Assembly: GCA_020847095.1 (NCBI GenBank)
Contig: JADLCR010000096.1
Span: 1,127 to 65,126 of the forward strand
DNA length: 64,000 nt
DNA from: Oligoflexia bacterium
GTDB taxonomy: Bacteria; Bdellovibrionota; Bdellovibrionia; JABDDW01
Direction: 5' to 3'
The notes beneath the pieces were generated by a model, which was not told where the DNA came from, did no database searches, and saw only the letters and a list, made by a program, of their open reading frames with translations. Of the stretch, positions 6,234-64,000 are shown piece after piece. Position 1 is the first letter of the stretch, and every line of letters starts with the position of its first letter. The translations under genes and the position numbers were made by a program.

Positions 6234-7568
6234 TTAATTTTTAAATCCCATATCAGAAATAAATAGAATTTTGTCTAATACGGCGGCCACTTGTTGTACT
6301 TCTTCTTGATTCATTTTGATCATCCTGAGCTGGTTTGGTGAGCCCGGGTCAAATAGTCCCATTTGCTGAAGTTCTGGAGGAAGATTAACTTTAACTCCAA
6401 TTTTAGCTTGCTCGACCAAAAACACTCCCCCGCGCAGCAACTCTTGAACTTCCACAAGTTGGGAGATTCTTGGTCCAAATGCCCGAATCAAAATTTGATC
6501 ATGGAGCAGGTTTTCGGCCGTTACCAGAAGAGCACCCGATTCACCATTAGGATTTGCAAGCCAAAGGTATCGGATAAATGATTGATCCTGGCCACTTGGC
6601 AACAAGTCTTCAATGTGCTCGGCCGATTTTATTCCAAAATCGGATTTCGCCCATTGGGTGGCTCTCACTTTTATCAATTCCATTAAGTGCCAGGCCAACT
6701 TCTGTCTGAAAAAGGTGCTTTGGTTCTCACCACGGCTCTTTGACGTCGACAAGAATGACTTAAGTGATTTTTCCAAATCAGAAATGATTTTTCGGTCAAC
6801 ATCACTAAAATTCCGCTCCATTTCACGACTTTTTGCGAGCGCTTCTTCTCTCACTTCTTTCATACTTGGAAGATCTGAGTTTGGTGAGGCGCGACGTTGC
6901 CGTCGCAATATCGCGGCATGAGAGGCGAAGTTCTCGGGCCCTGATCCTTTAATTAAGAATGACTGTCCGTTGCGTTCAAATCCTATGGGCTTTGATCCTA
7001 AAAAATAATATTTTACTCCCGATCTCGTTACGATCGTCTGGTCTGATAGTCGCTTCAAAACTTCAACATCAACCAACTCAAACGCTGACTGAAATTCCCT
7101 TTGAAAAGATACTTTAGTGGTCTGTTTTTTGACGTTTAAATAGTCTTCGACTTTTATTAAGACCCCCTGCCCGCTATCGGCCAATGCAACCTCATCGAGA
7201 ACCAGGGGAATCTTGTTTGTTTTGAGAAAGTTTGATCGAGATTCAGCGTTTTCAAACCGAATCAAAATATACTTTCCTTCGAGGGTCACCTTGAGATAGT
7301 GCCAGCTTTCAACATATGCCTTTGCCCTGATGACATCCGCAGGGGCCTCAAAGTTAATGGCAAAGACCTGATGAGGCTGGGAGATCGATTTGATTTTCCC
7401 TGGAATTAATACGAGATCTCCTTTGATATCAGGAGTAAAATAATAAGGTAGTCCAAGCTTTTGAAGTCCGCCCACACAGAATTTCGATGCTTGGCCTACA
7501 TAACCAGTTAAAAACACTAGATAAAATAGAGTTGCTGTGGCGATCTTCACATCATTAATGTGATGCAA
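6234..7568 (-). CDS. Hypothetical protein with an N-terminal membrane anchor.
   Basis: Long ORF with an N-terminal hydrophobic segment. No recognisable catalytic motif. Confidence 0.5.
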   Translation of the reverse strand: MHHINDVKIATATLFYLVFLTGYVGQASKFCVGGLQKLGLPYYFTPDIKGDLVLIPGKIKSISQPHQVFAINFEAPADVIRAKAYVESWHYLKVTLEGKYILIRFENAESRSNFLKTNKIPLVLDEVALADSGQGVLIKVEDYLNVKKQTTKVSFQREFQSAFELVDVEVLKRLSDQTIVTRSGVKYYFLGSKPIGFERNGQSFLIKGSGPENFASHAAILRRQRRASPNSDLPSMKEVREEALAKSREMERNFSDVDRKIISDLEKSLKSFLSTSKSRGENQSTFFRQKLAWHLMELIKVRATQWAKSDFGIKSAEHIEDLLPSGQDQSFIRYLWLANPNGESGALLVTAENLLHDQILIRAFGPRISQLVEVQELLRGGVFLVEQAKIGVKVNLPPELQQMGLFDPGSPNQLRMIKMNQEEVQQVAAVLDKILFISDMGFKN

Positions 7569-7589: not shown

Positions 7590-8765
7590 TTATCCCCCCT
7601 TAGAGTGGGCTAGGATTCGCAAATATTCGAGATAATCAAGCTCGCTCGGAAGGCTTCCCGAACGACTTTCGGATCTCAACGATTTCACATAAAGGCTATC
7701 TTCGTATCGATTGTAACAATCCATGGCGATCTTGGTGTGCGGGGCTTTAAAGATACAGGCCTTAAAATAAACTTCGTTCAGATTCCAAAATCGATCTTCC
7801 TGCACACTTTCATAGCATTGCCCTAAGAGATTATAAGCTTCAGCTTCATTTTGTCTGGAGTTTTTTCCTCGGATGTAATCATGCAATAAGCCCGAGGCCC
7901 TTAAAAAAGTGACATAACTCATTTGCTCTTCCAGCAAAGTCGAATGGCGATTGGCCTGACGGATCAACTGCCTTGCCATCACAAGCCCGCTTCCCGAACC
8001 TTTCGTGCCCTGGGACTTCCATTCTGAGATTACGCGCTTCCATTCGAGGGCTCGAGCTTTAACAGACGCAGGGCCTTCAGAAGTCTTTATGGCCAAATCT
8101 AATATTGAATTGGATCTTTCAAAGTCTTGCTTCACTCGCAAAGAAATCGCAAGTGCCCGTCGTAGAGCTTTTTCCCATTCAAAAGGCTTACCCTTGGCCA
8201 ACAGGGGGTCTTCAATCACTGACATGTAAATGCTCAAAGCCCGATCGTATTGGCGCGTTGCTGATAAAAGCTCCGCTTTTTCGATACGAGTTAAAGTTGA
8301 ATAATCATTGACGTCTCTCCATTGGTGAAACTCCGGTCCAAAAGTTCCGCGAGAGTGACACTGAACGCAAAGACTCGTGGCATTTCGAAGTACGGATCGA
8401 GAAAAATCCCGTTGTTTATTGCGTAACCCGTCGAGGGCGGTGGCCATTTCTTTGCTAAATGAAGATACGATCAATTTCATGCTGGGATCAGAATCAACAT
8501 TCTTAAAATCCTTTTCGTGAAGTCCTTTGATTTTAAGAGCAAGTTTAGCCAGCTTTTCGGTTTCACGGTCGATGCGGGCAAAATTGTCTGGGTCATTAAA
8601 TTCTGATTCACTAAAAATGATCGGTGCAAAAGTGTTCATCACGCCGGCAATCTCTTGCATGGTTCCTTGCCATGTTTCGGTGACAGGCGGCTGATCGATA
8701 TCAGCTTTTTTTGATGCCGCGCAGGCCGTAATAAGTGCTGCTGTGATTACAATTAAGAGCTTCAT
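7590..8765 (-). CDS. Lipoprotein with a single CxxCH heme motif, a putative mono-heme c-type cytochrome with a helical-repeat body.
   Basis: Lipoprotein signal (ALITACAAS) and one CVQCH motif. Confidence 0.5.
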   Translation of the reverse strand: MKLLIVITAALITACAASKKADIDQPPVTETWQGTMQEIAGVMNTFAPIIFSESEFNDPDNFARIDRETEKLAKLALKIKGLHEKDFKNVDSDPSMKLIVSSFSKEMATALDGLRNKQRDFSRSVLRNATSLCVQCHSRGTFGPEFHQWRDVNDYSTLTRIEKAELLSATRQYDRALSIYMSVIEDPLLAKGKPFEWEKALRRALAISLRVKQDFERSNSILDLAIKTSEGPASVKARALEWKRVISEWKSQGTKGSGSGLVMARQLIRQANRHSTLLEEQMSYVTFLRASGLLHDYIRGKNSRQNEAEAYNLLGQCYESVQEDRFWNLNEVYFKACIFKAPHTKIAMDCYNRYEDSLYVKSLRSESRSGSLPSELDYLEYLRILAHSKGG

Positions 8766-9937: not shown

Positions 9938-12066
9938 ATTCCAAAATATTCGTAGATAAACGTCCAAATGAAAGTCTCTGAACGCCACCCTATGCGATCT
10001 TGAATCATGTTGGACGTCATCCAATGGCCCGCGTTCTTAACAGATAAAAAGTGAATGTTATTTAGATTTCCGTATCTGTCATCAAGGGCCGCCTTGAGCT
10101 TATAAGTATGCGCCGAATTCACTCTGGAATCATGGGTTCCGTTAATGAGCAAGATAACCGGGGGATTTCTCCCAAGTTCAGCCTGCTTAACCGGAGAATA
10201 CTGAGAAAGATATTTGGCATCTCTTGCTTTTCGACTATCTCCATATTCGTAGGTCCATCCATTTGAAAATCTTGGATCCAACGCTTCTTTTCGAAGCATA
10301 TCTTGAACACCAGCACCTGAGATGATGAGGCCAAACGCCAATGGCTTTTGCAAACTTGTCGCCGCAACCCCGAGACCACCGTTGGACCAGCCTTCGACAG
10401 CAATACGATCAGGTCGAGATATCTTAAGACTTGTGAGAAGCTCCGCCGCCGCCGTAAAGTCGTCGAAAACATTTTGTTTGCGTTCAAATGTTCCTTGTTT
10501 ATGCCAGTCGGGACCAAAATTATTATCCCCTCTTAAGATTGGCGTCACAATAACACCGCCACGCTTCAGAAATTGAAAATCCATGGGCACAAACCAGGGG
10601 TAGAAATATCCTTGCGACGAAAAACCGCCATAGCCATAAATCAAACTTGGATTTGTTCCATCAAGGGCTATTCCTTTTTTAAAAGTGATTCGAACTGGAA
10701 GTCGCGTTCCATCTTGACTAGTGGCAAATTCAATTCGACTTTCAAATTGAAGACCGTCAGCTGTTAACATTTCTTGTTCAAGATTGGGGTTTTCAAATCG
10801 ATTTTCTTTAACCAAAAATTTTGCGGTGCGCCCAGACGCAACCTGACTCGTTAAACCTACGAGGAGATTTTCTTTTTTTGAATCCCACTTGACCCAATTG
10901 ATCGTGCTTGAAGGAGGAGCTTTTATCGCAATCTGAATCTGACCATTGGGGCCAAAGATATCGGCGTATTGATTTTCGCCATAATACGAAAATGCCGCCC
11001 ATTGCTCGCCCACCTTCGTCACTTTGCTCAAAACACGATTCGAGCGCTCCGGCACTACGGTGCGTACTTCGTTTGGCGCGTCAAAGTTTACCTCGACCGC
11101 CGATCCAAATCCTTGAATTCCGGAGAGCTTTAAAATGACAGAGGAATCGAACTGAGAAACAATATCTTCAATCTCAAGATCTTTGAGTTCAAGTGACCGA
11201 CCTTTTGAATCTCTCAGAGTGACAGCCTTTTCTTCGTATTGGATGTAAGCGTCAACGAAACTGAATTGAATTGATAATTTCTGATCTACCGTTTCAGTTT
11301 TTTGCGAGACTAAGTCAAAGATGCGAAGCGGAGTTGCGCCGTTTGCTGTTTCTAAACTGTTAAGGAAGTAAAAGCGCGTAGGACTTTGCCAAGCAATACG
11401 CGCCCAACCTACTTTTAGCTCTACTGGAACTCGCTTATTGGTCTTTAGGTCAAATACATATGCATTGTAGTCGTCGATCGAGCCTTTTTCTGATGCAAAA
11501 ACAATTGCAAAATCGCGGTTAGGCGACAAAACCGCCCGCGTGAAATTAACAGTGCCAGCCTTGCTTATGTCATGGCTTGAGAACAGAACCGTTTCATTAG
11601 CGAGGGGCTGCCTTGGTTGGGTTGGTTTCGCCTCACTTTCAAGTTTTCTAAGTTGATGTTCAAGCTCCCTGGGGCGCTGAAACTCTGAATCTTGACGGGT
11701 CGCGAACCTGCGCACGAGTACTTGCGGTTGACCAACGCCTTGATTTCTCAACACAACAATCTCGCCGTTTTCTAGCGAAAGAATGGAAATATCAAAGGGT
11801 CGATCCATTTGATTGAGTACCGTCTTGCCAACGGATTTATAATATCGACTGTCTCGGATTTTTTTGAGTGTCTTGGCATTTTGTTGGCGAACCCACTCGC
11901 GCCTTTGTGGGGAATCTGTTTCAAGCCATCGATAGGGGTCAAATTTCATTGCTTCAGTGCATGGCTCTGAAGCTCCCAATATTGATGGATAAATCAAAGT
12001 CGCCGATAAGATCAGCAGCAGGCTCATCCATGGTCTTCTTTCCAAAACATTCCCCTTCTTTTGCAT
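9934..12066 (-). CDS. Secreted prolyl oligopeptidase family serine peptidase (S9A).
   Basis: N-terminal DPYRWLE motif, catalytic GWSNGG nucleophile elbow in the C-terminal domain, and a signal peptide. Confidence 0.8.
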   Translation of the reverse strand: MQKKGNVLERRPWMSLLLILSATLIYPSILGASEPCTEAMKFDPYRWLETDSPQRREWVRQQNAKTLKKIRDSRYYKSVGKTVLNQMDRPFDISILSLENGEIVVLRNQGVGQPQVLVRRFATRQDSEFQRPRELEHQLRKLESEAKPTQPRQPLANETVLFSSHDISKAGTVNFTRAVLSPNRDFAIVFASEKGSIDDYNAYVFDLKTNKRVPVELKVGWARIAWQSPTRFYFLNSLETANGATPLRIFDLVSQKTETVDQKLSIQFSFVDAYIQYEEKAVTLRDSKGRSLELKDLEIEDIVSQFDSSVILKLSGIQGFGSAVEVNFDAPNEVRTVVPERSNRVLSKVTKVGEQWAAFSYYGENQYADIFGPNGQIQIAIKAPPSSTINWVKWDSKKENLLVGLTSQVASGRTAKFLVKENRFENPNLEQEMLTADGLQFESRIEFATSQDGTRLPVRITFKKGIALDGTNPSLIYGYGGFSSQGYFYPWFVPMDFQFLKRGGVIVTPILRGDNNFGPDWHKQGTFERKQNVFDDFTAAAELLTSLKISRPDRIAVEGWSNGGLGVAATSLQKPLAFGLIISGAGVQDMLRKEALDPRFSNGWTYEYGDSRKARDAKYLSQYSPVKQAELGRNPPVILLINGTHDSRVNSAHTYKLKAALDDRYGNLNNIHFLSVKNAGHWMTSNMIQDRIGWRSETFIWTFIYEYFGI

Positions 12067-12128
12067 TTTGGCTCAAAGAGTCATAGCAATGCGGCCGCCA
12101 ATTTGGAAGCCGAAAACTCAAATACAAT

Positions 12129-12605
12129 TTGCCCGCCCAATTGATTCCTGTTAGCTTTAAAATCACTATGAAAACGGCGCGTATACTATGTTTTGCGGCT
12201 ATTTTATCGGGATTGGCCGCCTGCCAATCACCGTCTCGCTCAGGCGAGGCCCTTGATTCTTCTCCACTTAAAACTGACGTAAGACATGGCTGGACTGTTT
12301 TTACGGGACCAAAACCCACTCAAACGAAGTCCACTAATACAGAGTCCATCGAGCGAGGACGCGCTGTTTTCGCAAAATACTGTCAGTCCTGCCATGGCGT
12401 GACTGGGCAAGGAAACGGTCCTGACGCTCAAGAATTTCGCCTTCATCCGGCCAATTTGAAAAATGTGGCTAAGGCTTTACCCAATCACTATATTTTTATT
12501 CAGATCAACGAAGGCAAATCCGGCGGCATGCCGCGCTGGAAAGACTTGCTCACGTCGCAAGACGCGGCCGATGTGACCCAGTACATCCAGAGCCTTTCAA
12601 AGTAG
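12129..12605 (+). CDS. Class I mono-heme cytochrome c lipoprotein. The start is probably the internal ATG at about 12159.
   Basis: CQSCH heme site and lipobox LSGLAAC. Confidence 0.7.
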   Translation: MPAQLIPVSFKITMKTARILCFAAILSGLAACQSPSRSGEALDSSPLKTDVRHGWTVFTGPKPTQTKSTNTESIERGRAVFAKYCQSCHGVTGQGNGPDAQEFRLHPANLKNVAKALPNHYIFIQINEGKSGGMPRWKDLLTSQDAADVTQYIQSLSK

Positions 12606-13409
12606 ATGAAAAAGGATTTATCAGAAAAATTTGGTTATCAACAAACACCACCATTTATTTTAACTGAAGACTCTCCCCTCGGCGCATATAGAACTGAAAA
12701 AGAGAAACATCTACAGCAGAGATTTTTCAGAGAGAGCTTACCACTTTCATACTTCACTGATCATTTTCCCAAATATTCTTGCCGTCAGGAAATTGCGCGC
12801 TTTATGGCTCGAAATGAACTCTTCAGAACAATATTAGGTATTCAGGGAAGTATCGTCGAATGTGGCGTTTTTGGTGGCAATGGCTTGATGTCGTGGGCTC
12901 ATCTGTCCGCCATTCTTGAGCCCAACAATAATTTTCGGCAAGTTATCGGATTCGACACATTTAGTGGATTTCCTAGCGTTCACGAAAAAGACCTTCTTCC
13001 CGGCTCAGCTATTGGCCCCGGTTACGTATCAGACCCCTGTTACGAAGATTTAAAAAGATGTATCGAGTTGTTTGACAAAAATAGAAATGCCCCCATCGAT
13101 CAGCCTCAATACGCAAAAGCTCAGCTTATTCGAGGAGACTTTATGACCACCGGCCCAAAGTTTTTGGAGCAAAATCAACACCTACTACTGTCCCTATTGT
13201 TTTTAGACTTTGATTTATATGAGCCAACAAAACTTGCGCTTAAACTTTTCTTGCCCCGAATGGCCAAAGGCAGCCTAATTTGTTTCGACCAAATCAATCA
13301 CCCTGCCTGGCCAGGAGAAACAGCCGCCCTATTAGAATCTTTTGACATCAAAAAGCACCAAATAGAACGTTGCCAATCAGAACCAAAAATTAGCTTTATT
13401 CGCCTCTGA
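12606..13409 (+). CDS. Class I SAM-dependent O-methyltransferase, TylF/MycF (macrocin O-methyltransferase)-like.
   Basis: GSIVECGVFGGNG glycine-rich SAM-binding motif. Size and overall pattern are typical of the TylF family. Its start abuts the stop of the cytochrome c gene. Confidence 0.5.
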   Translation: MKKDLSEKFGYQQTPPFILTEDSPLGAYRTEKEKHLQQRFFRESLPLSYFTDHFPKYSCRQEIARFMARNELFRTILGIQGSIVECGVFGGNGLMSWAHLSAILEPNNNFRQVIGFDTFSGFPSVHEKDLLPGSAIGPGYVSDPCYEDLKRCIELFDKNRNAPIDQPQYAKAQLIRGDFMTTGPKFLEQNQHLLLSLLFLDFDLYEPTKLALKLFLPRMAKGSLICFDQINHPAWPGETAALLESFDIKKHQIERCQSEPKISFIRL

Positions 13410-24703: not shown

Positions 24704-24732
24704 TAAAAAATCCACTTGGCCAGTGGATTTTT
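24704..24732. terminator. Strong bidirectional hairpin terminator (A6-TCCACT / AGTGGA-T6).
   Basis: Perfect inverted repeat aaaaaatccact-tggcc-agtggatttttt. Confidence 0.65.
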
Positions 24733-24736
24733 TAAA

Positions 24737-24772
24737 TGGCGGGGTGTACGCCTTTAGGGCTAACACCCCGAA
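24737..24772. repeat. Island-end att repeat and truncated tRNA-Asp copy that retains both acceptor-stem halves.
   Basis: tggcggggtgtacg is identical to 31881-31894, the 3' end of tRNA-Asp. ctaacaccccga matches the tRNA 5' end. The tRNA middle is deleted. Confidence 0.6.
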
Positions 24773-24813
24773 GTTGTTATATTTTCGATAGTCGTAAGTA
24801 GCAAGATCAAGTT

Positions 24814-25935
24814 TTAGCTGTCAGTTCCGCCTTTTCTGATGGAAATAACCTCTGCTGGAGGGCGTTGTTCATTGGGAATAATGAAGCCCAGGGCTTCTGT
24901 AGCACCCCGAATATCCACTCCTGCCATCCTTAAATACCCATTGGTGGTTCTCATCGAGTTATGACCAACAATGGCCATAACATGAGCGATGGAAACCCCT
25001 TTGGCTAATAAGGTAGTAATAAACGTTGCCCGAAGGTCATGGAATTTAACTGGCGTGATGCCGATCGCCTTACAAAAGTCTCTCGTCACCTCTGCCTGAT
25101 CTCCATGAAACCATTCTTTAAGCCTTGGGAGAATGAACTCATCCTCAAGTTTTCTTTTGATCAACTCTTCTTTTAAGAATGTCATCAGCTCCTGAGAGAT
25201 GGGAATCACTCTATTCTGCCTTGTCTTTGTCGGGCCAAAGCCGCCAAACCGTGTCCACTGACGGGTTAATGTGATGACTCTTCGATCAAAATCCACATCA
25301 CTCCATCTCAGTGCAAACATTTCTCCAGATCTCATTCCTGTTGTTAGGGCCATAACCCAAACAGGATAAAATCTGTGGTTTACCGCTTTTGCTTCTAACA
25401 AAAACTTTCTAACTTCATCGGAGGTCAACACCTGCTGATCCGTGTCAGGCAGCTTAATAACAATGCCCAAGCACGGATTGTGGGTAATGTGACCCTCCTC
25501 AAGTGCCATCTGAAAGACTCTTTTGATCATCTTCAAAAGATGTTTTCGAGCACTTGGGGTGATGAGTGTATTCGCCTTTTCAAACACAAGCTCATAAACT
25601 TCACGCTTAGTGATTGTGTTTATGTCTCGCAGTTTCCAAACTGGGTCGGCCCACTTTCCAAGAGTCACCTTGTAGTTGTGAAGAGTAGAGGGTTTGCAGT
25701 TATTGAACTTCATTCGAAGCTCACAAGCTGTTCTCCACTCATGCCAACGAGGCACGACGTCCTGCTCTTTGAGTTGAGCAACTTTACGCTTGAGCTCAAA
25801 CTCTTCATTCCTAGCTTTGTGAAGCGTCTCGATGTTCATCTTACGCATTTGATGGCGACGACCTCGCTTATCTCTGCCTGTGACGTACACCGTGTAAAGG
25901 ACTTTACCGTTCTTCTCGTACTGATTAATTGCCAT
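24814..25935 (-). CDS. int: Tyrosine-type site-specific integrase.
   Basis: C-terminal catalytic HxxR…Y block (HDLRATF…GHNSMRTTNGYLR). AGGAG Shine-Dalgarno 8 nt upstream of the ATG at 25935. Confidence 0.9.
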   Translation of the reverse strand: MAINQYEKNGKVLYTVYVTGRDKRGRRHQMRKMNIETLHKARNEEFELKRKVAQLKEQDVVPRWHEWRTACELRMKFNNCKPSTLHNYKVTLGKWADPVWKLRDINTITKREVYELVFEKANTLITPSARKHLLKMIKRVFQMALEEGHITHNPCLGIVIKLPDTDQQVLTSDEVRKFLLEAKAVNHRFYPVWVMALTTGMRSGEMFALRWSDVDFDRRVITLTRQWTRFGGFGPTKTRQNRVIPISQELMTFLKEELIKRKLEDEFILPRLKEWFHGDQAEVTRDFCKAIGITPVKFHDLRATFITTLLAKGVSIAHVMAIVGHNSMRTTNGYLRMAGVDIRGATEALGFIIPNEQRPPAEVISIRKGGTDS

Positions 25936-25937
25936 GA

Positions 25938-26225
25938 TTAGGCTCCTTTCATTTCGATCAGAGCTCTGCAATCAACCAGCTTAAAACGCAGCCTTCGTCC
26001 AAATTTATGCACCTTGATTTGATCCCGATGGACCAAAATTCTCAGCGCATTTGCACTTATTGATAAATAATAAGCCGCTTCATCTGTACTCAGCCACTCA
26101 CGTTCTATTCGATTATCAAAGAACAGTTTTCTATTTCGTCCACCTAAATTATCCATTCTTCTCATTTCAGTCGAATCTTTTAAGTTTTTTAAGTCGTCTA
26201 ATTCTCCTCTCGTTAAATTATTCAT
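25938..26225 (-). CDS. xis: Excisionase/AlpA-like helix-turn-helix DNA-binding protein.
   Basis: HTH segment LSTDEAAYYLSISANALRILVHRDQI. Directly upstream of int with a 2-nt gap. Confidence 0.65.
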   Translation of the reverse strand: MNNLTRGELDDLKNLKDSTEMRRMDNLGGRNRKLFFDNRIEREWLSTDEAAYYLSISANALRILVHRDQIKVHKFGRRLRFKLVDCRALIEMKGA

Positions 26226-26266
26226 TCTTAATCCCTTTCTTCATCCGCACGCACCACCATGCCCCG

Positions 26267-26316
26267 TCTCCGTGACTACTCTCCACCCATGAAGGTGGGG
26301 AGTAGTCACGGAGTTT
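26267..26316. promoter_or_regulatory. GC-rich near-perfect 20-bp inverted repeat upstream of xis-int, a possible operator or terminator.
   Basis: ctccgtgactactctccacc-catgaa-ggtggggagtagtcacggag with one wobble position, followed by TTTT. Confidence 0.4.
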
Positions 26317-26697
26317 TAGAGGGGCAAAAGCAGTCGCGTGCGGAATCGTTAAACGTTTGAAACCATTTCGATTCACGAAGAAAAGTCGTACACTTAGTTG
26401 CTTTTAAACATTGGGCCCCAGGAGGCCCCATGTTTTGAAAGTGTCTTTTATTTTGGGGGGGACAACACTCCCCCCAAAGATCCTCTTTTAATGCGCTACA
26501 TACACTCCTCCCTTGCTAAAAAAATCATGATTAACAAAGTGGAAAAGTAGGATGCACGCTCACGCGCATATGCAAAAATTGAGTTGGTTTAGGTAGATAA
26601 GTCGGGATCAGTAGTAAAAAGTAGTGTCTCTTTCATCAAGAGACTTCACCACATTAATCAATCCAGCCTTGAATTTCAAGGGATTTTTAAAACGAAG

Positions 26698-27222
26698 TTA
26701 ATGTAGCTCGATTGTTTTCTCAATATTCTGAGTAGAAACAGCACCATCAAGCTTCGTGGTAATTAATTGTGCAATATCGAGTGGGAGCGGCTTAGGGGAA
26801 AATATAAATCTATAAGCCCAGCCTCTTCCATATTGCTCTCTAATTTTAGTGTTAATATTTCCATCACTTAATAGCACAGGAGCCTTAACGAATTTAGTAA
26901 TAGTAATCTTAAACCTATGTGGATATTTTTTGTCGGACCATATTTCTTCTTCTGAATAGAAGTACTCACTTTCCACTTTTGCCGTAGCCCATATCATTCC
27001 AACGCAGTGCAAGAACACGACGGATCCTGGCTTAATGAGGTTTTTGAAAGTTGTTAATGTAGATCCAATAGTTTTTGTTTGAACTGCTAAAAGCAGGTTT
27101 TCTTTACGTTTTCCAAAGCTAACTATATTAAACGACATGGTTTCTAGTTCATATCCCTGAAAGCCTCTCATGTCTAGCTGCAGCGTTGATAAATTCATTT
27201 TATGAGTATATATTTTTGGCAA
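26698..27222 (-). CDS. PUA-like (EVE/ASCH-type) domain protein. The start is uncertain: TTG at 27222 or ATG at 27198 or 27171.
   Basis: GSVVFLHCVGMIWATAKVESEYFYSEEEIW…HRFKITI resembles the EVE core pattern (GDxVxFYHS…IVGIAEVVSEPY). It is divergent from the methyltransferase gene. Confidence 0.4.
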   Translation of the reverse strand: MPKIYTHKMNLSTLQLDMRGFQGYELETMSFNIVSFGKRKENLLLAVQTKTIGSTLTTFKNLIKPGSVVFLHCVGMIWATAKVESEYFYSEEEIWSDKKYPHRFKITITKFVKAPVLLSDGNINTKIREQYGRGWAYRFIFSPKPLPLDIAQLITTKLDGAVSTQNIEKTIELH

Positions 27223-27248
27223 TTAGCTCACACCCTAGACGAGGCAAA

Positions 27249-28796
27249 ATGAATCAAAATTTTGAAGCTTGCCCGATCGAGCTTTCTGACAAGCTTGGAC
27301 GGGAATTTTTTAATATCTCTTCAGAAAATAAAGCGACATTGGGTCAATACTTTACCCCATTTGAAGTTGCTAACTATATGGCTAGTCTTTTGGTTCCTGT
27401 TAAAAAAACAAAGGTGCTCATATTAGACCCAGGAGCCGGAAGTGGGATTCTATCTATTGCAGCTGTCAAATCATTAGTTGAGCGAGCAGATTCTATCACT
27501 AAACATTTTCACATCGATTTATTTGAAATCGATTCGTCATTAATTGAAAAACTTAGTTCAAGTCTAAAGCATCTCAAGACTTGGTGTGCTAATCGAAATA
27601 TCAAGCTAACATTCGAAATAGTCTCAGAAGACTTTATTCTAAGTAATTCATCGGCCATTAGCGAGCAGCAGTCTCTGATTCAATCAGTGAGCGAGTACGA
27701 TATCGTAATTTCTAATCCACCATATTTTAAAATAGGTAAGGACGATCCTAGAGCACTTGCCTGCGCAAGCATCGTTTATGGACAGCCCAACATCTATGCC
27801 CTCTTTATGGCGGTTTCAGCTGCGTTATTGAATGAAGATGGTCAATTGCTATTCATAACGCCACGAAGTTTCGCTTCAGGCCAATATTTCAAATCATTTC
27901 GACAGTACTTCTTCTCTCAAATTGCTATAGGGCAAATTCATCAATTTGTAAGTCGAGTTGATGCATTCGAAAGGGATAGTGTTTTACAAGAAAACATTAT
28001 TTTATTTGGGTTCAAAAAGAAGTCTACAACCACATCTCCGATAACAATTACAAGTTCACAAGGGCGCTCAGATATCAATGACAGCTCCACTCTGCGAGTT
28101 AAAGAATTTGAAATTTTAGAAAAAAATAATGACTTTGCTCTGTCGCTACCAAGTACTAAACAAGACATGCATGTTTTGAAAATTATTAAGAGCTGGAAGA
28201 ATAGTCTTGAATTAATGGGATTAAAAATATCAACCGGGCCTGTGGTTCCCTTTAGAGCCACAGAATTTTTAATGAAAGATAAGGTGCAAGGAGTTGTTCC
28301 CTTGTATTGGATACAACACATCAAGCCCATGCAAACACTTTTCCCGCTTCCCGCTTTTCGCAAGCAGCAGTGGTTTAAAGATAATAAGCAATCCAAAAAA
28401 CTACTCGTAAAGAATCAAAATATGATTTTAATGAGACGTTTTAGTCCGAAAGAAGACTTTAGGAGACTTACAGTCGCTCCGTTTTTAAGTTCTGGCTATA
28501 AAGGTAGTTTTGTAGGCTTAGAAAATCACTTAAATTATATCTACAGGCCAAATGGAAAATTTGCTGAGAGCGAAATTATGGGATTATCAGCTTTTCTCAA
28601 TTCTAGATTTTTTGATTCATACTTCAGAATATTAAATGGGAATACCCAAGTTAGCGCAACAGAGCTGCGGGCGGCTCCATTGCCACCGCAAGAAAAGCTT
28701 ATTGAAATTGGAACTACACTAATTAAAGCAAAGGATTACTCGTACCAAGCGATCGATACGGTTGTTGAAGAGATTCTTGAATTGGATGGCTACTGA
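27249..28796 (+). CDS. N6-adenine DNA methyltransferase, gamma-class of the Eco57I/PstI-methylase family. Start moved to Met22, which carries an RBS.
   Basis: Motif I LDPGAGSGILSIAA, motif IV NPPYFKIG, and an N-terminal YFTPFEVANYM. Confidence 0.8.
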   Translation: MNQNFEACPIELSDKLGREFFNISSENKATLGQYFTPFEVANYMASLLVPVKKTKVLILDPGAGSGILSIAAVKSLVERADSITKHFHIDLFEIDSSLIEKLSSSLKHLKTWCANRNIKLTFEIVSEDFILSNSSAISEQQSLIQSVSEYDIVISNPPYFKIGKDDPRALACASIVYGQPNIYALFMAVSAALLNEDGQLLFITPRSFASGQYFKSFRQYFFSQIAIGQIHQFVSRVDAFERDSVLQENIILFGFKKKSTTTSPITITSSQGRSDINDSSTLRVKEFEILEKNNDFALSLPSTKQDMHVLKIIKSWKNSLELMGLKISTGPVVPFRATEFLMKDKVQGVVPLYWIQHIKPMQTLFPLPAFRKQQWFKDNKQSKKLLVKNQNMILMRRFSPKEDFRRLTVAPFLSSGYKGSFVGLENHLNYIYRPNGKFAESEIMGLSAFLNSRFFDSYFRILNGNTQVSATELRAAPLPPQEKLIEIGTTLIKAKDYSYQAIDTVVEEILELDGY

Positions 28797-29731
28797 TGCA
28801 AAAAATCAAAGAAGCACAACAGATATTAAAAGCTTTAGGTTTGGCAACCAAGCAACAAAACGAGATGTCAGCTCTAACCCTTCTTGCCCTAGCAAATATA
28901 CTACCCAATGGTAGTTGGGCTAAGGCGAGCAAAAAATCCATGGGCGTTTCAAATGACATAATGGTTTTCGTATCCAAAATATATAAAAGGAGGTACGCGC
29001 CAAACTCACGCGAAACATTCAGACGACAAGTCCTGCATCAATTCACACAGGCTTGCTTAACAGCGTATAACCCCGACAATCCTAAGCTTCCAGTTAACAG
29101 TCCGAACGCGCATTATGCGCTTACTGATGAAGCCTTGGAAGCGATTAGAGCCTTTGGGAAACCACAATTTAATAAGCTTGCAGCTAAGTTTGTTAAATCT
29201 TTAGAAAAGCGAGCCGGTCAGTATGAAAAAAAGAGAAACATTAATCGCATTCCCTTAGTGCTTGAAGACGGTAAAACTCTAACGCTTTCACCGGGTGAGC
29301 ACAACGAGGTTGAGGCTGCGATTGTAAGAGAATTTGGACCCAGATTCGCTAAAGGATCGAAACTTCTATATCTTGGCGATACCGAAAATAAAGAAATCAT
29401 TTTCGAAAAGGATACATTAAAGCAACTTGGTTGCAAAATAGTCGCACATGGCAAATTTCCCGATGTAATTCTTTTTGACGAAAAAAATAAGTGGCTGTTC
29501 CTGATTGAAGCAGTCAGTTCACATGGGCCGATGTCTCAAAAAAGAGTGAATGAGTTAAAAGATATTTTTTCTGGTTCTAAGTTGGGACTGGTTTTTGTAT
29601 CTGCATTTCCGAATTTTACTGAATTTAAACGCCACGCGAATGATATCGCTTGGGATACAGAAGTATGGCTGGCCGATGCACCAGATCATCTGATTCATTA
29701 TAACGGAGATCGTTTTTATGGTCCTCGCTAA
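28796..29731 (+). CDS. Putative type II restriction endonuclease (BsuBI/PstI-like), cognate to the methyltransferase.
   Basis: ATG overlaps the methyltransferase stop (TGATG). PD-(D/E)xK-like FPDVILFD…LIEAV. About 311 aa, consistent with the PstI-family size. Confidence 0.45.
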   Translation: MQKIKEAQQILKALGLATKQQNEMSALTLLALANILPNGSWAKASKKSMGVSNDIMVFVSKIYKRRYAPNSRETFRRQVLHQFTQACLTAYNPDNPKLPVNSPNAHYALTDEALEAIRAFGKPQFNKLAAKFVKSLEKRAGQYEKKRNINRIPLVLEDGKTLTLSPGEHNEVEAAIVREFGPRFAKGSKLLYLGDTENKEIIFEKDTLKQLGCKIVAHGKFPDVILFDEKNKWLFLIEAVSSHGPMSQKRVNELKDIFSGSKLGLVFVSAFPNFTEFKRHANDIAWDTEVWLADAPDHLIHYNGDRFYGPR

Positions 29732-29744
29732 ACTATTTTGCTAG

Positions 29745-30191
29745 GTGGCACTGATGGATAAGACCTTTAATATTTCTATACAAAGCGACAGTGATGGTTT
29801 CATTGCACTACATTGCAAGCTATGTAGTCGTAAGTTTAAAATGACCGTGCCTGATATTGAAGATGAAACTAGAAATGGAACTTTTTGTCCTGCATGTGGC
29901 ATGAACCAAAATATGTCAGAGTACTATCCTGAGAGTGTTGCTGAGGCAGCAATGACTGTTGCTGCAGAGATGGCAGAAAATGAAATCATGAATATTTTCA
30001 AGAAAACATTTTCAGGCTCTAAACATATTAAAGTGAAAACACCACAGCCCAAATCTATTTCGCAACCAAAGGTATATACTGAAGAGGGGAGTTATTCATC
30101 CTATGGCCTTGCATGCTGCCAGCGAGAAATCAAAATTGAAGCAGCTTCTTCTGGCAACGTAGTATACTGTCCGTTTTGCGGGTTAAGTTAA
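29745..30191 (+). CDS. Zinc-ribbon protein of unknown function.
   Basis: CxxC…CxxC pairs (CKLCSRKF…CPACG and CC…YCPFCG). Starts 14 nt after the restriction endonuclease gene. Confidence 0.5.
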   Translation: MALMDKTFNISIQSDSDGFIALHCKLCSRKFKMTVPDIEDETRNGTFCPACGMNQNMSEYYPESVAEAAMTVAAEMAENEIMNIFKKTFSGSKHIKVKTPQPKSISQPKVYTEEGSYSSYGLACCQREIKIEAASSGNVVYCPFCGLS

Positions 30192-30192
30192 A

Positions 30193-31005
30193 ATGGTTGA
30201 TAGTCTAGGAGAAAAAGAGCTTAAAAAACTATCTTTGGATTTTCGTCAATTTTCAAGTCGATTGATGTCCTCTCAAGTTGGAGATGCGAAAAAAAATTGC
30301 TTTAGATTCATCAATTATATCGAGCAAACGCCCTTACTGATGGACTACATTAGAAATTGTCGACCAATCATTATAAATTTTGATGAAGTTCTAAAAGCCA
30401 GAAGCCAGTACGACCAATTTGATATTCCAGAGGATATTGAAGGTGAGATCTCTTACGTTTACTCTTTATTAAAATGGTTTCTACAAAGTAAATACGATTA
30501 CTACCAAATTGCATATACTTATGGGTCAGGAAATAAGGTGCAATACCACATAGAAGCCTTCAATCGAGGCGTAGTGCTGCCCTTTATTCAGCATTTAGAA
30601 AATCGAATACAAACGCTCATAATTAAAAGAAGTGAGGATAATGTGCCTAATCAAGGAATTAAGGTTGATGGAAATGTTGGACAAATAAATTACGCAACAA
30701 ATAGCAGCCATATTTCTGCAAACAACATTTCAAATTCGACTGTTGAGCAAATTGTACATGAAGGTGCTAAAATTTTAACAATGCTGAATAGCGAAAATAA
30801 TATTGATCAAGCATCCAAAGAGGAAACTAAAGAATTAGTTGAAACAATACTAAATGAAATCAAAGCAAAAGAGCCCAAAAAAACATTATTGCGCATGGCC
30901 AAGGACAGACTTGAGCAGATTACTAAGTTGGCGGGATTCACGCTCGCGGCTAAGGAATGTATTGAAAAAATATGCGCCTTGGCGGCTTCTTACATGGGCT
31001 CATAG
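30193..31005 (+). CDS. Hypothetical protein translationally coupled to the zinc-ribbon gene.
   Basis: 2-nt spacing from the upstream stop. No recognisable motif. Its C-terminus looks coiled/helical. Confidence 0.5.
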   Translation: MVDSLGEKELKKLSLDFRQFSSRLMSSQVGDAKKNCFRFINYIEQTPLLMDYIRNCRPIIINFDEVLKARSQYDQFDIPEDIEGEISYVYSLLKWFLQSKYDYYQIAYTYGSGNKVQYHIEAFNRGVVLPFIQHLENRIQTLIIKRSEDNVPNQGIKVDGNVGQINYATNSSHISANNISNSTVEQIVHEGAKILTMLNSENNIDQASKEETKELVETILNEIKAKEPKKTLLRMAKDRLEQITKLAGFTLAAKECIEKICALAASYMGS

Positions 31006-31605
31006 CTAGTGCTGACGGTTTCTCTGCCTGACGTCAGCTCTGTGCAGATTAAAATCCAGTTTCAACGCGTTTTTGCAATAGTCTTTCGTTAGATAGTCAA
31101 ATGTTCTTCGATCAATTTCAGCAAAAACAAAAGGAGCGCCTAAAGACTCCTCAAGTCGGTCAATATCCGATCTTGGTGAACTAGGATAATATTCTTTAAT
31201 CAAACCCTTTTCGACTAAATTATCAAAATATAACCTTGGGTACTTTTTCAAATTAAAGTCAGCATCAAGTGTATTATCATCTATAAAACAATGAATAATA
31301 AACTTCTCTACTTCGTGGAGACTTTTTATCTTTTTAGAAATGCTGCTACCAAAGAAGACCTGTCCACAAATATTAAAAACTCCATTTATGCAAAATTGAC
31401 CGAGTAAAATAATTCCTTTTAGCAAAAAGTAGCAAACGATAAACCCTGCAATTAGTGGAAATGCAAATGGTAACACCCCAAATACAACCGCAAGGATGGC
31501 ACCAATAAGACAAACAACCAAAGTAATTATGTCAATGGGCCTATCCGGCTTAAATCCTAAAATATCCTTTACAATTTTGAAGAAAATCCCCTCAGGTAAA
31601 GCCAA
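31006..31605 (-). CDS. Hypothetical membrane protein with two N-terminal TM helices and a cytoplasmic domain.
   Basis: Hydrophobic helices LVVCLIGAILAVVFGVL and LIAGFIVCYFLLKGIILL. Convergent with the upstream operon, with no gap. Confidence 0.5.
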   Translation of the reverse strand: MALPEGIFFKIVKDILGFKPDRPIDIITLVVCLIGAILAVVFGVLPFAFPLIAGFIVCYFLLKGIILLGQFCINGVFNICGQVFFGSSISKKIKSLHEVEKFIIHCFIDDNTLDADFNLKKYPRLYFDNLVEKGLIKEYYPSSPRSDIDRLEESLGAPFVFAEIDRRTFDYLTKDYCKNALKLDFNLHRADVRQRNRQH

Positions 31606-31880
31606 GATTGCTCCTTAATGAAGAATGACAAAAAAAGAGATGCTGTTGCTTAAGTTCAATAAAAAAATTCTCACTAATCTAAAGATGTATGTCTAGATTA
31701 AATTGAGTCCAGTTAAGACCTATCAAGTAGCTTTTCAAGTAGTACAAAAGTAGCAACGTAGCGAAATTTGTTGAAAGACTGCGAAATAAACCGGTTGATC
31801 GGCAAAGCTCGATTCAGTGTTTTCAATTACTTATAATCTTTGGGTTTCTGACTCAGACTTACAAAACGACTAGTGAAAAT

Positions 31881-31957
31881 TGGCGGGGTGTACGGGACTC
31901 GAACCCGTGGCCTTCCGCGTGACAGGCGGACGTTATAACCAACTTAACTAACACCCC
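31881..31957 (-). tRNA. tRNA-Asp (anticodon GTC).
   Basis: Cloverleaf with anticodon loop CCTGTCACG, T-arm GGTTCGAGTCC and a 3' CCA encoded in the DNA. Confidence 0.9.
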
Positions 31958-62175: not shown

Positions 62176-62250
62176 GCGAGCATAGCTCAGCGGTAGAGCA
62201 CTGCACTCACACTGCAGGGGCCACAGGTTCGATCCCTGTTGCTCGCACCA
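62176..62250 (+). tRNA. tRNA-Val (anticodon CAC).
   Basis: Acceptor GCGAGCA/TGCTCGC, anticodon loop CTCACAC, T-loop TTCGATC, CCA encoded. Confidence 0.9.
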
Positions 62251-62375
62251 ATTTTCGTTTATCGCTTTTGTGGCGAATTGAATTTTCTTAGACTTTCTAA
62301 CTAATTGAAAACACTGAAAAGCGCCTGGTGATCACCGCCTGTTTATTTCGCAAAGTTTCGCGAAATTTCATATGT

Positions 62376-62405
62376 TTGCTACTTCTTGCTACTTGCTTTG
62401 CTACT
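62376..62405 (+). repeat. Three direct copies of the octamer TGCTACTT at 10-12 bp spacing (iteron-like).
   Basis: Read directly from the sequence: tgctacttct tgctacttgcttt gctactt. Confidence 0.7.
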
Positions 62406-62487
62406 TTTGATTTTCGTCGTTTTCCACTCGTAGTTCTATTCGGGTTTCTTAGTGCCTTCTTCTTCCAACATTTAAAGGAGGCTACTT

Positions 62488-62538
62488 ATGTACCGTCTGT
62501 TAGTTCGACTGATGTTGTTATTTGCCCTCAGACAGTGA
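62488..62538 (+). CDS. 16-codon leader ORF (MYRLLVRLMLLFALRQ) with a strong Shine-Dalgarno.
   Basis: AAAGGAGG sits 6 nt upstream of the ATG. Stop TGA at 62536-62538. Not in the ORF track because it is too short. Confidence 0.3.
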   Translation: MYRLLVRLMLLFALRQ

Positions 62539-62561
62539 AGGGTTGTAATCTTATTTATCAT

Positions 62562-63227
62562 ATGGACTATTTTGAGATCAAAAGTAATGGAAACACATTC
62601 GAGATACAGGGATTTCCAAATGCTGCTAAGGTAATTAAAATTGCCGGCCCCAAAGCCAAACGTCTTGCAGACTTGGCTTTACATAAGAACGATCTCGACT
62701 TTGCGCTTTCATGCTTGGAACAGATCAATAATGTGAGTGATAAAACATTTGTTGTTAAGCAAGCTTTATGGAGAAGTGCCATTGTTCATTATGTGAAATG
62801 TTTTGGAAAAAGTAAGGCGCGCTTTAGTTTGCAATATGCTCAAATTTATAAAGGTCAAGCCGAAGCAAAAGAGCCTTATAAATATTTTGATAGTTTGAGA
62901 AAAAAACATTTAGTTCACGATGAAAATTCATACGCTCAATGTTTAACGGGAGCAATTCTCAACAAAGCTGATGCCTCTTATAAAATTGAAAAAATAATAT
63001 GTCTAAGTGTTATAGGAGAAACCCTATCACAAGGTAATTATAGCAATCTTCACCTTTTGATTAGTGTTGCAAAAAAATGGGTGGTCGCTGATTTTGACAA
63101 ACTGTGTGTAGAGCTGACTAATGATTTAGAGTCCAAGCCATACAGTGATCTACTATCTAAAGAGGCAATTACCTACGTCGCCCCCGACCAAAATGATGTT
63201 CATAAATTAAGACCAAAGGAATTATAA
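62562..63227 (+). CDS. Hypothetical protein encoded by an AT-rich orphan gene downstream of tRNA-Val. The track ORF start at 62328 is rejected.
   Basis: First in-frame ATG after the repeat region. 221 aa. No recognisable motif. Confidence 0.45.
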   Translation: MDYFEIKSNGNTFEIQGFPNAAKVIKIAGPKAKRLADLALHKNDLDFALSCLEQINNVSDKTFVVKQALWRSAIVHYVKCFGKSKARFSLQYAQIYKGQAEAKEPYKYFDSLRKKHLVHDENSYAQCLTGAILNKADASYKIEKIICLSVIGETLSQGNYSNLHLLISVAKKWVVADFDKLCVELTNDLESKPYSDLLSKEAITYVAPDQNDVHKLRPKEL

Positions 63228-63233
63228 AATAAA

Positions 63234-63256
63234 CGGCGGGATTGTATGTCCCGCCG
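63234..63256. terminator. Bidirectional hairpin terminator between convergent genes.
   Basis: cggcggga-ttgtatg-tcccgccg, flanked by A/T runs. Confidence 0.6.
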
Positions 63257-63261
63257 AAAGT

Positions 63262-63990
63262 CTACTGAACCGATTCTGGATTATTCATGATCAAAATAGC
63301 TGCCATTAACTTCGGCAGATAGTCCTTATCGTTTTCAAACCCATTTCGAATGAGAGTCCAAGCATTTCGAGAACCAGTCTTATCGATACCTCTTTGTAGA
63401 TGCTTTGCTCCCATGTTGTAAGACATGACTGAAAGATGCCAGTCTTTAAACACAAGCTGCTCAGCCTTTAAGTATCTCATCGCTGCATCTGTCTCGATAT
63501 CGACATTAAGTCTATCATCGACTTGATTATCGACTCGCATACCAAAGTTTTTTGCCGTTGACGGAATGAATTGCCATAAACCTGCAGCTCTTCCAGGAGT
63601 ATTGCTGTCTGTTTCGCTTAGGTTCTGGTAACCACTTTCAATGATCGGCAATGCCAATATTTCAAATGGCACTTGGTATTCCTTGAGCTTGCCCTCCACA
63701 AGACTTCTGTGATTCTCCAGTCTTTGCAGAGCATTCTTCATATACTCGCGACCTTCTGGTGTACCTATATAACGATTTAGTTGTTTAAGTACTAAGTCGT
63801 TCACGACAACTGGAAAATCTGAGTTCACAGCAGCCTTTGTCTGCATTTTTTTGGCATCAGCCATGCTGACTCTTCGATCTTGCACTAAACCTTGTGATGC
63901 AAAGGCTGTTGCGGTCATAAGCGCAACTATTAATCCTCCGGTGATCCAACTGATCGACCTTCTTTTGTTAATCTTTGATGCTGAAAACAT
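63262..63990 (-). CDS. Lytic transglycosylase (SLT domain) with a signal/TM anchor.
   Basis: SLT catalytic motif PIIESGYQ…AAGLWQFIPSTAKNFG. Confidence 0.8.
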   Translation of the reverse strand: MFSASKINKRRSISWITGGLIVALMTATAFASQGLVQDRRVSMADAKKMQTKAAVNSDFPVVVNDLVLKQLNRYIGTPEGREYMKNALQRLENHRSLVEGKLKEYQVPFEILALPIIESGYQNLSETDSNTPGRAAGLWQFIPSTAKNFGMRVDNQVDDRLNVDIETDAAMRYLKAEQLVFKDWHLSVMSYNMGAKHLQRGIDKTGSRNAWTLIRNGFENDKDYLPKLMAAILIMNNPESVQ

Positions 63991-64000
63991 TTTTTCTATC

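Follow-up and report, generated by a model that had tools for sequence, protein, structure and literature searches.

What kind of element occupies the 7.1-kb interval beside tRNA-Asp in the chromosome of an uncultured Oligoflexia bacterium, how did it get there, and could it still move? These questions are raised by a 64,000-nucleotide stretch of contig JADLCR010000096.1 (hereafter the window), in which a tyrosine integrase gene lies at one end of the interval, an intact tRNA-Asp(GTC) gene lies at the other, and both ends carry the same 14-bp sequence. We conclude that the interval is very probably an integrative island that entered the chromosome at the 3' end of the tRNA-Asp(GTC) gene by means of its tyrosine integrase. 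The geometry of the insertion, the intact recombination genes, the family-typical attachment (att) arms, the foreign composition of the cargo and the identities of the cargo genes are firmly established.

The island is bounded by the 3' end of tRNA-Asp

An earlier note on this DNA had proposed a site-specifically integrated element flanked by a 14-bp repeat of the tRNA-Asp 3' end, provided that the repeat was not common elsewhere. Within the window, the 14-mer TGGCGGGGTGTACG is indeed confined to 24737-24750 and 31881-31894, and a tolerance of two mismatches adds no further match; the chance expectation is about 0.08. Its right copy is the reverse complement of the tRNA-Asp 3' end (...CGTACACCCCGCCA, CCA included), given that an intact tRNA-Asp(GTC) is called on the minus strand at precisely this place. 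The core is thus made up of CGT of the T stem, the 3' acceptor strand ACACCCC, the discriminator G, and CCA. The left copy lies 63 bp from the integrase stop codon and is abutted by a palindromic terminator that also terminates a converging gene encoding a 238-aa protein. Such a terminator is the sequence expected to follow an uninterrupted tRNA gene, and its position directly after the left repeat therefore fits a displaced tRNA 3' end. Beyond three tRNAs, the Rfam search of the window returned nothing.

The genes between the repeats follow the order that had been proposed, and gene calls and profile searches bear this out. The integrase is full length and has its catalytic residues R202, K237, H299, R302, H325 and Y334 in invariant alignment columns. 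Its ribosome-binding site AGGAG is embedded in the last codons of the excisionase gene, 9 nt ahead of the integrase ATG, just as had been noticed before, and the excisionase stop codon lies 2 nt ahead of this ATG (25935), which links the translation of both genes. The methyltransferase and restriction endonuclease genes, previously described as a tightly overlapping pair, share a single nucleotide. The proposal of a site-specifically integrated element is upheld by the catalytic integrase, the link to the excisionase and the terminator as well as by the presence of the 14-mer beside a 60%-identical integrase and by the att arms and the layout of the family described below.

The anatomy suggests that a 14-bp core in the attP of the element would have recombined with the identical sequence that forms the final 14 nt of tRNA-Asp. 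The tRNA gene would thereby have been rebuilt with element-borne sequence, and its original 3' end, together with the terminator, would have been moved 7.1 kb away to a place beside the integrase gene. Integrase and excisionase would in turn excise the island as a circle in which 31880 and 24751 are connected by a single copy of the core. The predicted junctions are ...GAGTCCCGTACACCCCGCCATTTAAAAAATCC... for attB and ...CCCTAAAGGCGTACACCCCGCCAATTTTCACTAG... for attP, so the attP circle should read ...CCCTAAAGG-CGTACACCCCGCCA-ATTTTCACTAG... and the empty attB ...GGTTCGAGTCC-CGTACACCCCGCCA-TTTAAAAAATCCACTGG....

Integrase and excisionase belong to a large family of tRNA-targeting elements

The integrase and a flank protein match proteins of an NCBI metagenome-assembled genome labelled Oligoflexia bacterium without any difference (P0001 in the case of the integrase). 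The integrase has 1,176 significant relatives, the top 120 of which are 51-64% identical. Two of them, at 60% (P0003) and 55% identity (P0035), sit at the very end of type IV secretion system (T4SS) elements with the order HTH_17 excisionase before integrase, and these elements encode TraG/VirB4, CagX, TrbI and a TrwB- or FtsK-like coupling protein. Past the stop codon of the 60%-identical integrase, the identical 14-mer CGTACACCCCGCCA is found after 85 bp and in the same orientation as in the window, at a locus (L053/L061; L-numbered loci are related loci recovered for comparison) that comes from an unrelated metagenome. The relatives at 64% and 62% identity have ...CCCCGCCA cores at the equivalent position (...CTACCCCGCCA and ...GTCCACCCCGCCA), followed by ordinary chromosomal genes.

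A metagenome scan with the integrase alignment returned 79 loci. Six of these carry a tRNA-Pro or tRNA-His gene on the integrase strand, at a distance of 2.4-4.6 kb upstream of the integrase. At four of the six, the last 7-10 nt of the tRNA are repeated 90-150 bp past the integrase gene. Because it recurs at these tRNA-linked loci, the succession of tRNA, cargo, excisionase, integrase and short repeat is the norm of the family. The excisionase is likewise homologous to the gene directly upstream of the integrase in L076, L083, L094 and L119 (E 1e-21 to 3e-30). Compact islands of 3.7-5.7 kb are common in this integrase family, and the 14-bp repeat studied here exceeds most of theirs. Sequence comparison assigns the integrase, the excisionase and the two att arms to one large family, made up of conjugative and mobilisable elements of Bdellovibrionota-like bacteria. 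Members of this family insert at the extreme 3' ends of tRNA genes, and their excisionase and integrase genes are located at the end far from the tRNA.

The compact islands L076, L083, L090/L092, L094 and L119 are located at tRNA-Pro or tRNA-His, and these five have short terminal repeats, with no more than 7-10 nt from the end of the tRNA and a few bases beyond it. Their cargo includes Replic_Relax genes (L076, L119), a Gp49/HI1420 toxin-antitoxin pair (L083), a small serine resolvase (L090) and secreted proteins. At L053/L061, a large serine recombinase gene (11185-12675) lies on the opposite strand directly past the att core of the T4SS element and overlaps the core sequence, which suggests a second element in tandem at the same site.

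Both ends of the island resemble the attachment arms of the family

The integrase-proximal arm (P arm) was aligned over the roughly 100 nt from the integrase stop codon to the left repeat with those of 16 relatives. This alignment displays TTGCTnCTTnnTGCTACTnGCGnnnTTCGA, then TTA(G) at a fixed distance, the tRNA acceptor strand and CCA, and the P arm of the window carries the TTAG motif of the family at the fixed distance from CCA. On the tRNA-sense strand, positions 24740-24770 form an imperfect palindrome with 13-nt arms (CGGGGTGTTAGCC-CTAAA-GGCGTACACCCCG-CCA; DNA fold -13.4 kcal/mol, z -4.1), the left arm of which copies the 5' acceptor strand of tRNA-Asp so that the whole imitates an acceptor stem. 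Relatives at tRNA-Pro or other tRNA genes (e.g., L073, L089, L119 and L151) have an equivalent attP palindrome that matches their own target, and it may serve as the core site of the integrase or as the terminator of its gene. An interpretation of 24751-24775 as the relic of a deleted "mini-tRNA" was dropped, since both the TTAG motif and the palindrome resembling an acceptor stem regularly occur in the attP of this family.

The tRNA-proximal arm (P' arm) presents a series consisting of CCA-ATTTTCA, the 17-mer TAATTGAAAACACTGAA (31813-31829), GTTTATTTCGCA and four arm-type repeats of the form GCTAC/ACTAC (31727-31770), and a close version of this series follows tRNA-Pro in L076. With both of its ends homologous to att arms of the family, the boundaries of the island are fixed independently of the 14-bp repeat.

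The cargo differs from the surrounding chromosome in composition

The interval had earlier been judged by eye to be more AT-rich than its flanks, and windowed GC content confirms this for the cargo but not for the recombination genes. The cargo (26331-31880) has a GC content of 0.376 compared to 0.454 +/- 0.011 (minimum 0.431) in 183 windows of the same size outside the island, i.e., about 7 standard deviations below same-size windows elsewhere in the 64 kb, whereas the integrase-excisionase part is host-like at 0.442 and shows no deviation. This low-GC cargo consists of a restriction-modification (R-M) module with a third gene, a candidate PDC-M14 module and an orphan membrane protein, and the modules are predicted to act in defence (Table 1). 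The view that the interval is the likeliest site of novel accessory functions in the window seems fair, as the cargo consists of defence genes that are partly uncharacterised.

Table 1. Positions of the island's features and of two genes in a further element of the window.
Feature	Position	Strand	Basis or description
Chromosomal palindromic terminator	24706..24735	.	Sequence and RNA fold: 13-bp stem, -16.1 kcal/mol, z -3.75, then U-run
Left att core copy, displaced tRNA-Asp 3' end	24737..24750	- (CGTACACCCCGCCA on minus strand)	One of only two window matches
Integrase-proximal att arm (P arm)	24751..24813	-	Sequence, DNA fold, alignment with 16 relatives
Tyrosine integrase, 373 aa from ATG	24814..25935	-	PF00589 at 2.4e-26
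Excisionase / recombination directionality factor, HTH_17	25938..26225	-	PF12728, TIGR01764
Conserved long palindrome, candidate origin of transfer (oriT) or operator	26256..26325	.	15-sequence alignment
EVE/YTH-like stand-alone PUA-superfamily protein X, ~146 aa	26698..27138	-	Third gene of conserved X-M-R cassette
Intergenic motif ATCAnCGCTGCAGCTAGACA between X and M	27171..27192	.	CTGCAG at 27178-27183
N6-adenine DNA methyltransferase (M)	27249..28796	+	PF07669, PF02384; PADLOC MTase_II 2.8e-110; ILDPGAGSG (S-adenosylmethionine-binding) and NPPY
BsuBI/PstI-family type II restriction endonuclease (R)	28796..29731	+	PF06616 2e-57, PF17728 1.5e-42; SdaI PDB 2ixs 1.3e-67
PDC-M14A, small, two CxxC...CxxC zinc ribbons	29754..30191	+	PADLOC PDLC04447 1.2e-39; weak zinc-ribbon Pfam matches
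PDC-M14B, all-helical	30193..31005	+	PADLOC PDLC04449 1.1e-62
Orphan 199-aa membrane protein	31006..31605	-	Hydrophobic N-terminal half, 2-3 predicted membrane helices; TTG start after AAGGAG
tRNA-proximal att arm (P' arm)	31700..31880	-	Aligns with arms after tRNA-Val(CAC) (same window) and tRNA-Pro (L076)
tRNA-Asp(GTC), intact	31881..31957	-	ARAGORN and Rfam, 72 bits; last 14 nt (31881-31894) = right att core copy
Open reading frame of unassigned function in tRNA-Val(CAC) element	62328-63227		
SLT transglycosylase gene, tRNA-Val(CAC) element	63262-63990	-	

A conserved palindrome upstream of the excisionase is a candidate origin of transfer

Profile searches found no match to secretion, coupling-protein or relaxase families among the eight proteins of the island, which thus does not qualify as an integrative and conjugative element (ICE). 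Searching the island by tblastn with the cargo proteins of its relatives retrieved the excisionase alone and no remnant of Replic_Relax or T4SS genes, and in the related compact islands L076 and L119 a Replic_Relax gene lies directly upstream of the excisionase. At 45-90 bp ahead of the excisionase gene, we found a long palindrome with 20-nt arms (26268-26287 and 26294-26313), an invariant TGAC...GTCA core and a GCCCC...GGGGC outer pair. At least 14 other loci (L069, L071, L073, L076, L083, L095, L102, L104, L110, L122, L133, L137, L140 and L143) share it at the equivalent position, with covarying arms and a related loop, and it directly follows Replic_Relax in L076 and L143. In a 15-sequence alignment, its 20-pair helix is 88.7% paired with 15 pairs altered on both sides and zero G-U intermediates, though this count of covariation is inflated, to the disadvantage of our interpretation, because the sequences had been picked by an inverted-repeat search.

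The palindrome has no match in Rfam and is unlikely to be an RNA element: The lack of G-U intermediates, together with its presence in elements with unrelated recombinases (L143 has a serine recombinase, L140 a different integrase), makes a site at the DNA level more likely. Its position after Replic_Relax and its occurrence alongside unrelated recombinases also place it on the transfer rather than the integration side of these elements. We therefore prefer to view it as a candidate oriT, with an operator as the alternative. If the island moves between cells at all, it would need a helper, and mobilisation in trans through the palindrome is a speculative route. The palindrome may be a shared oriT that lets gene-poor islands ride on Replic_Relax or T4SS helpers irrespective of their recombinase. 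In L122 (also L123), two copies with differing outer arms lie 2.5 kb apart on one contig (506-540 and 3038-3072) and may reflect tandem or nested elements.

How well does the reading as an integrative island hold?

Several observations weigh against a functional integrative island as we describe it. Where relatives carry two TTGCTAC repeats in the P arm, the island has one perfect copy (24798-24804) and one that is degenerate, and its TTCGA box has diverged; the att site may thus be sub-optimal or decaying. The island carries no mobilisation gene, so that its transfer is purely inferred and the oriT is likewise only predicted, and the defence role of PDC-M14 has candidate status only (10.1101/2024.01.29.577857). 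Furthermore, the case involves a single genome, and the databases searched hold no close relative of this metagenome-assembled genome. The 238-aa protein of the flank has no homologue except itself among 5.8 billion proteins, and the LOG-family protein of the flank has nothing above 55% identity among GTDB species representatives, with distant matches that have no synteny value. No identical flank, LOG, endonuclease or integrase protein is recorded in the contig index, and neither the attP junction nor the operator motif of the X-M spacer has an exact match in the viral contigs scanned. Because the lineage lacks close relatives, our interpretation is built on comparison with the elements of the family instead of on an empty site.

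It is possible, though we consider it unlikely, that the interval is the fixed, no longer mobile remnant of a larger conjugative element from which deletions removed the T4SS and relaxase genes, with the defence genes either retained or inserted later. The closest integrase relatives with long contigs do sit in T4SS elements, and L140 presents an intermediate in which a homologous X-M-R cassette lies in an element with fragmented VirD4-like genes. A loss would also account for the absence of the Replic_Relax gene that precedes the palindrome directly in related compact islands, and for the partly degenerate repeats of the P arm. However, the integrase and excisionase frames are intact, the 14-bp repeats are identical, and the recurrence of compact islands in the family shows that small size is normal. 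This explanation overlaps with that of an integrative island as far as the origin is concerned and differs from it solely with regard to present mobility.

A prophage remnant or phage satellite with a phage-type integrase is highly improbable: The integrase does match phrog_1 and phrog_216, but these are generic integrase families, it has no relative in 2.9 million viral contigs, its relatives reside in T4SS or Replic_Relax elements, and the island contains no capsid, terminase, replication or repressor genes. That the repeat arose by chance in ordinary chromosome of lower GC content is scarcely credible and effectively refuted, since 14 bp may be short and the genome a single one, but the two matches exceed the chance expectation and fall on a tRNA 3' end and beside an integrase gene, the same 14-mer takes the same position beside a homologous integrase in an unrelated metagenome, and both arms carry family motifs.

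A PstI-type restriction-modification cassette with a reader-like third gene

The R-M module of the integrative island belongs to the BsuBI/PstI type II systems, since a nuclease with BsuBI_PstI_RE and BsuBI_PstI_RE_N domains adjoins an N6-adenine methylase with an NPPY motif. Characterised members of the PstI/BsuBI/SdaI family cut CTGCAG (PstI, BsuBI) or CCTGCAGG (SdaI), and by analogy the island system is predicted to recognise CTGCAG, a prediction that the conserved CTGCAG of the X-M spacer described below backs only indirectly. This site is found 9 times in the window with 12.4 expected; it is not depleted, and there is thus no sign of a long residence of the restriction system.

The third gene, X, is transcribed divergently from M and R and encodes a protein with a PUA-like beta-barrel fold that is closest to EVE/YTH structures, yet there is no Pfam match to EVE (PF01878) or YTH at E values up to 10. 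Its family alignment has invariant aromatic residues (W49, Y58, F59, W66, Y71, W106, Y108 and F112). X is rare: A set of 5.8 billion proteins contains 14 clusters of it, and none of 72,556 plasmids encodes it, though 176 of them have the nuclease family. In all five independent contexts (the window, L140, L143, L147 and L148), X is divergent from homologous M and R genes, at identities across contexts of 56-67% for X, 53-65% for M and 61-68% for R. The spacer between X and M contains the motif ATCAC(G/T)CTGCAG(C/G)T(A/G)GACA in every one of the five contexts (L140 ~8005-8030, L143 ~7950-7975, L147 ~6945-6970 and L148 ~7015-7040), and the remaining spacer is unconserved. In the window, the CTGCAG of this motif lies 2 nt from the -35 element of the best promoter-like match for the methylase (27186-27214), and on the X side it abuts a -35-like TAGACA.

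These features suggest a three-gene cassette with its own predicted target site in a shared control region, in which X would sense or exploit adenine methylation. It is conceivable, if rather doubtful, that X acts as a methylation-state sensor that reads the methylation of the CTGCAG site or of the genome and tunes the expression of M, R or itself, or else directs restriction. Such a sensor would amount to a control principle unlike the helix-turn-helix (HTH) C-proteins of type II systems.

The element surroundings of the X-M-R cassette vary and always include other defence genes. Its neighbours are an OLD-type ATPase-TOPRIM protein and a UvrD helicase (Gabija-like) in L147 (958-6893), GmrSD and a RelA/SpoT-domain protein in L148 (2501-4485), and an OLD-like pair and a Ser/Thr kinase in L143 (3528-5409 and 8437-9606). 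In the gene calls for L147, the methylase is split into two genes of 380 aa and 126 aa, which a frameshift may explain. Two hairpins lie between X and the palindrome in the window (26400-26485), namely GGGCCCCAGGAGGCCC (26413-26428) and a G7/C7 stem with a T-run (26451-26479) that is probably the terminator of the X gene.

A candidate PDC-M14 pair and an orphan membrane protein

Three genes of the cargo had been listed as unknown in the earlier note; two of them match the PADLOC profiles PDC-M14A and PDC-M14B, whereas the third remains an orphan membrane protein. The PDC-M14A and PDC-M14B genes are adjacent on one strand with a 1-nt gap and are assigned to PDC-M14 by these profiles. PDC systems comprise 145 candidates with genes embedded in BREX, DISARM or type I systems and are called untested by their authors (Payne et al., 10.1101/2024.01.29.577857), and a literature search on the name "PDC-M14" returned no paper. 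PDC-M14B has no Pfam match and no real match in a sequence search of the PDB, and a single-sequence AlphaFold2 model of it was discarded (predicted local distance difference test score 52). PDC-M14A is 33% identical to the gene preceding a PDC-M14B homologue on the Bacillus cereus plasmid pJ10_1.

The A and B pair is found at 27-33% identity on about 30 large plasmids of Bacillus, Lysinibacillus and Clostridium, where all copies are annotated as hypothetical, and on pJ10_1 (L150, 4500-5777) it adjoins genes with LPD1 and DUF3854 domains. Two genes in L140 (148 aa and 304 aa) that had been considered as PDC-M14 were excluded by tblastn. The orphan 199-aa protein has just 4 relatives among 1.84 billion representatives and no match in Pfam, NCBIfam or PADLOC.

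A second element of the same family at tRNA-Val

At a distance of 30 kb, tRNA-Val(CAC) (62176-62250, plus strand) marks the apparent start of a second element of the same family that runs off the window (62176-64000). The 180 nt after this tRNA gene (62250-62404) align with the P' arm of the island and have in common with it CCAATTTTC, the identical 17-mer TAATTGAAAACACTGAA and GTTTATTTCGCA. Three TTGCTAC repeats follow at 62376, 62386 and 62398. SLT genes such as the one in this element are frequent in T4SS elements, and the element at tRNA-Val may be a T4SS element and a helper for the island.

Significance and comparison with known systems

What we regard as real is a well-delimited integrative island at tRNA-Asp that carries defence genes in an under-sampled lineage, and its newest point is the X-M-R cassette with its self-target site. 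The island illustrates a route by which defence genes are gained in the poorly known Oligoflexia (Bdellovibrionota) and how small integrase-excisionase backbones of one large integrase family plug into various tRNA 3' ends with interchangeable cargo. As leads, it offers a rare reader-like partner of PstI-type systems with a predicted self-target in the promoter, a natural context of PDC-M14, and a conserved palindrome that may explain the movement of islands without transfer genes. These leads leave the basic picture of genomic islands unchanged.

Integration at the extreme 3' end of tRNA genes is said to define a class of its own, reportedly recognised by Williams. The island shares with tRNA-targeting islands in general a tyrosine integrase and an excisionase, a repeat of the tRNA 3' end, a regenerated tRNA gene, deviating composition and accessory cargo. 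It differs from them in that the integrase is located at the tRNA-distal end, as across its whole integrase family, in that attP carries a palindrome copying the acceptor stem of the tRNA, and in its host lineage, the little-studied Oligoflexia. With ICEs and integrative and mobilisable elements of the same integrase family (L053/L061, L056-L058, L076 and L119), it has in common homologous integrase (51-64% identity) and excisionase genes, homologous P and P' arms bearing repeats of the TTGCTAC type, the arrangement of genes at the element's end and, for many members, the palindrome upstream of the excisionase. Unlike these elements, it lacks a T4SS, a coupling protein and Replic_Relax, and its interior is entirely defence cargo.

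The PDC-M14 pair shows no structural difference from the system defined by PADLOC, both profiles being matched by adjacent genes on one strand. Similar to the PstI, BsuBI and SdaI systems, the R-M module combines both BsuBI_PstI domains, a match to SdaI (2ixs) and an N6-adenine methylase with an NPPY motif, but it adds a divergent stand-alone EVE/YTH-like gene and a conserved CTGCAG motif in between. Stand-alone EVE genes are described, in the portion of Bell et al. 2020 (PMC7641849) available to us, beside type I and SWI2/SNF2 helicase-nuclease systems, mostly of archaea. Compared to the genes in that portion, X likewise combines the fold of a PUA-superfamily reader of modified bases with a position beside an R-M operon, whereas its partner is a bacterial type II N6-methyladenine system, it is not a Pfam EVE protein, and a predicted target of its own system lies in the shared promoter region. 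The type of element is therefore well known, and its rare part looks like an R-M partner that resembles a reader of methylated bases.

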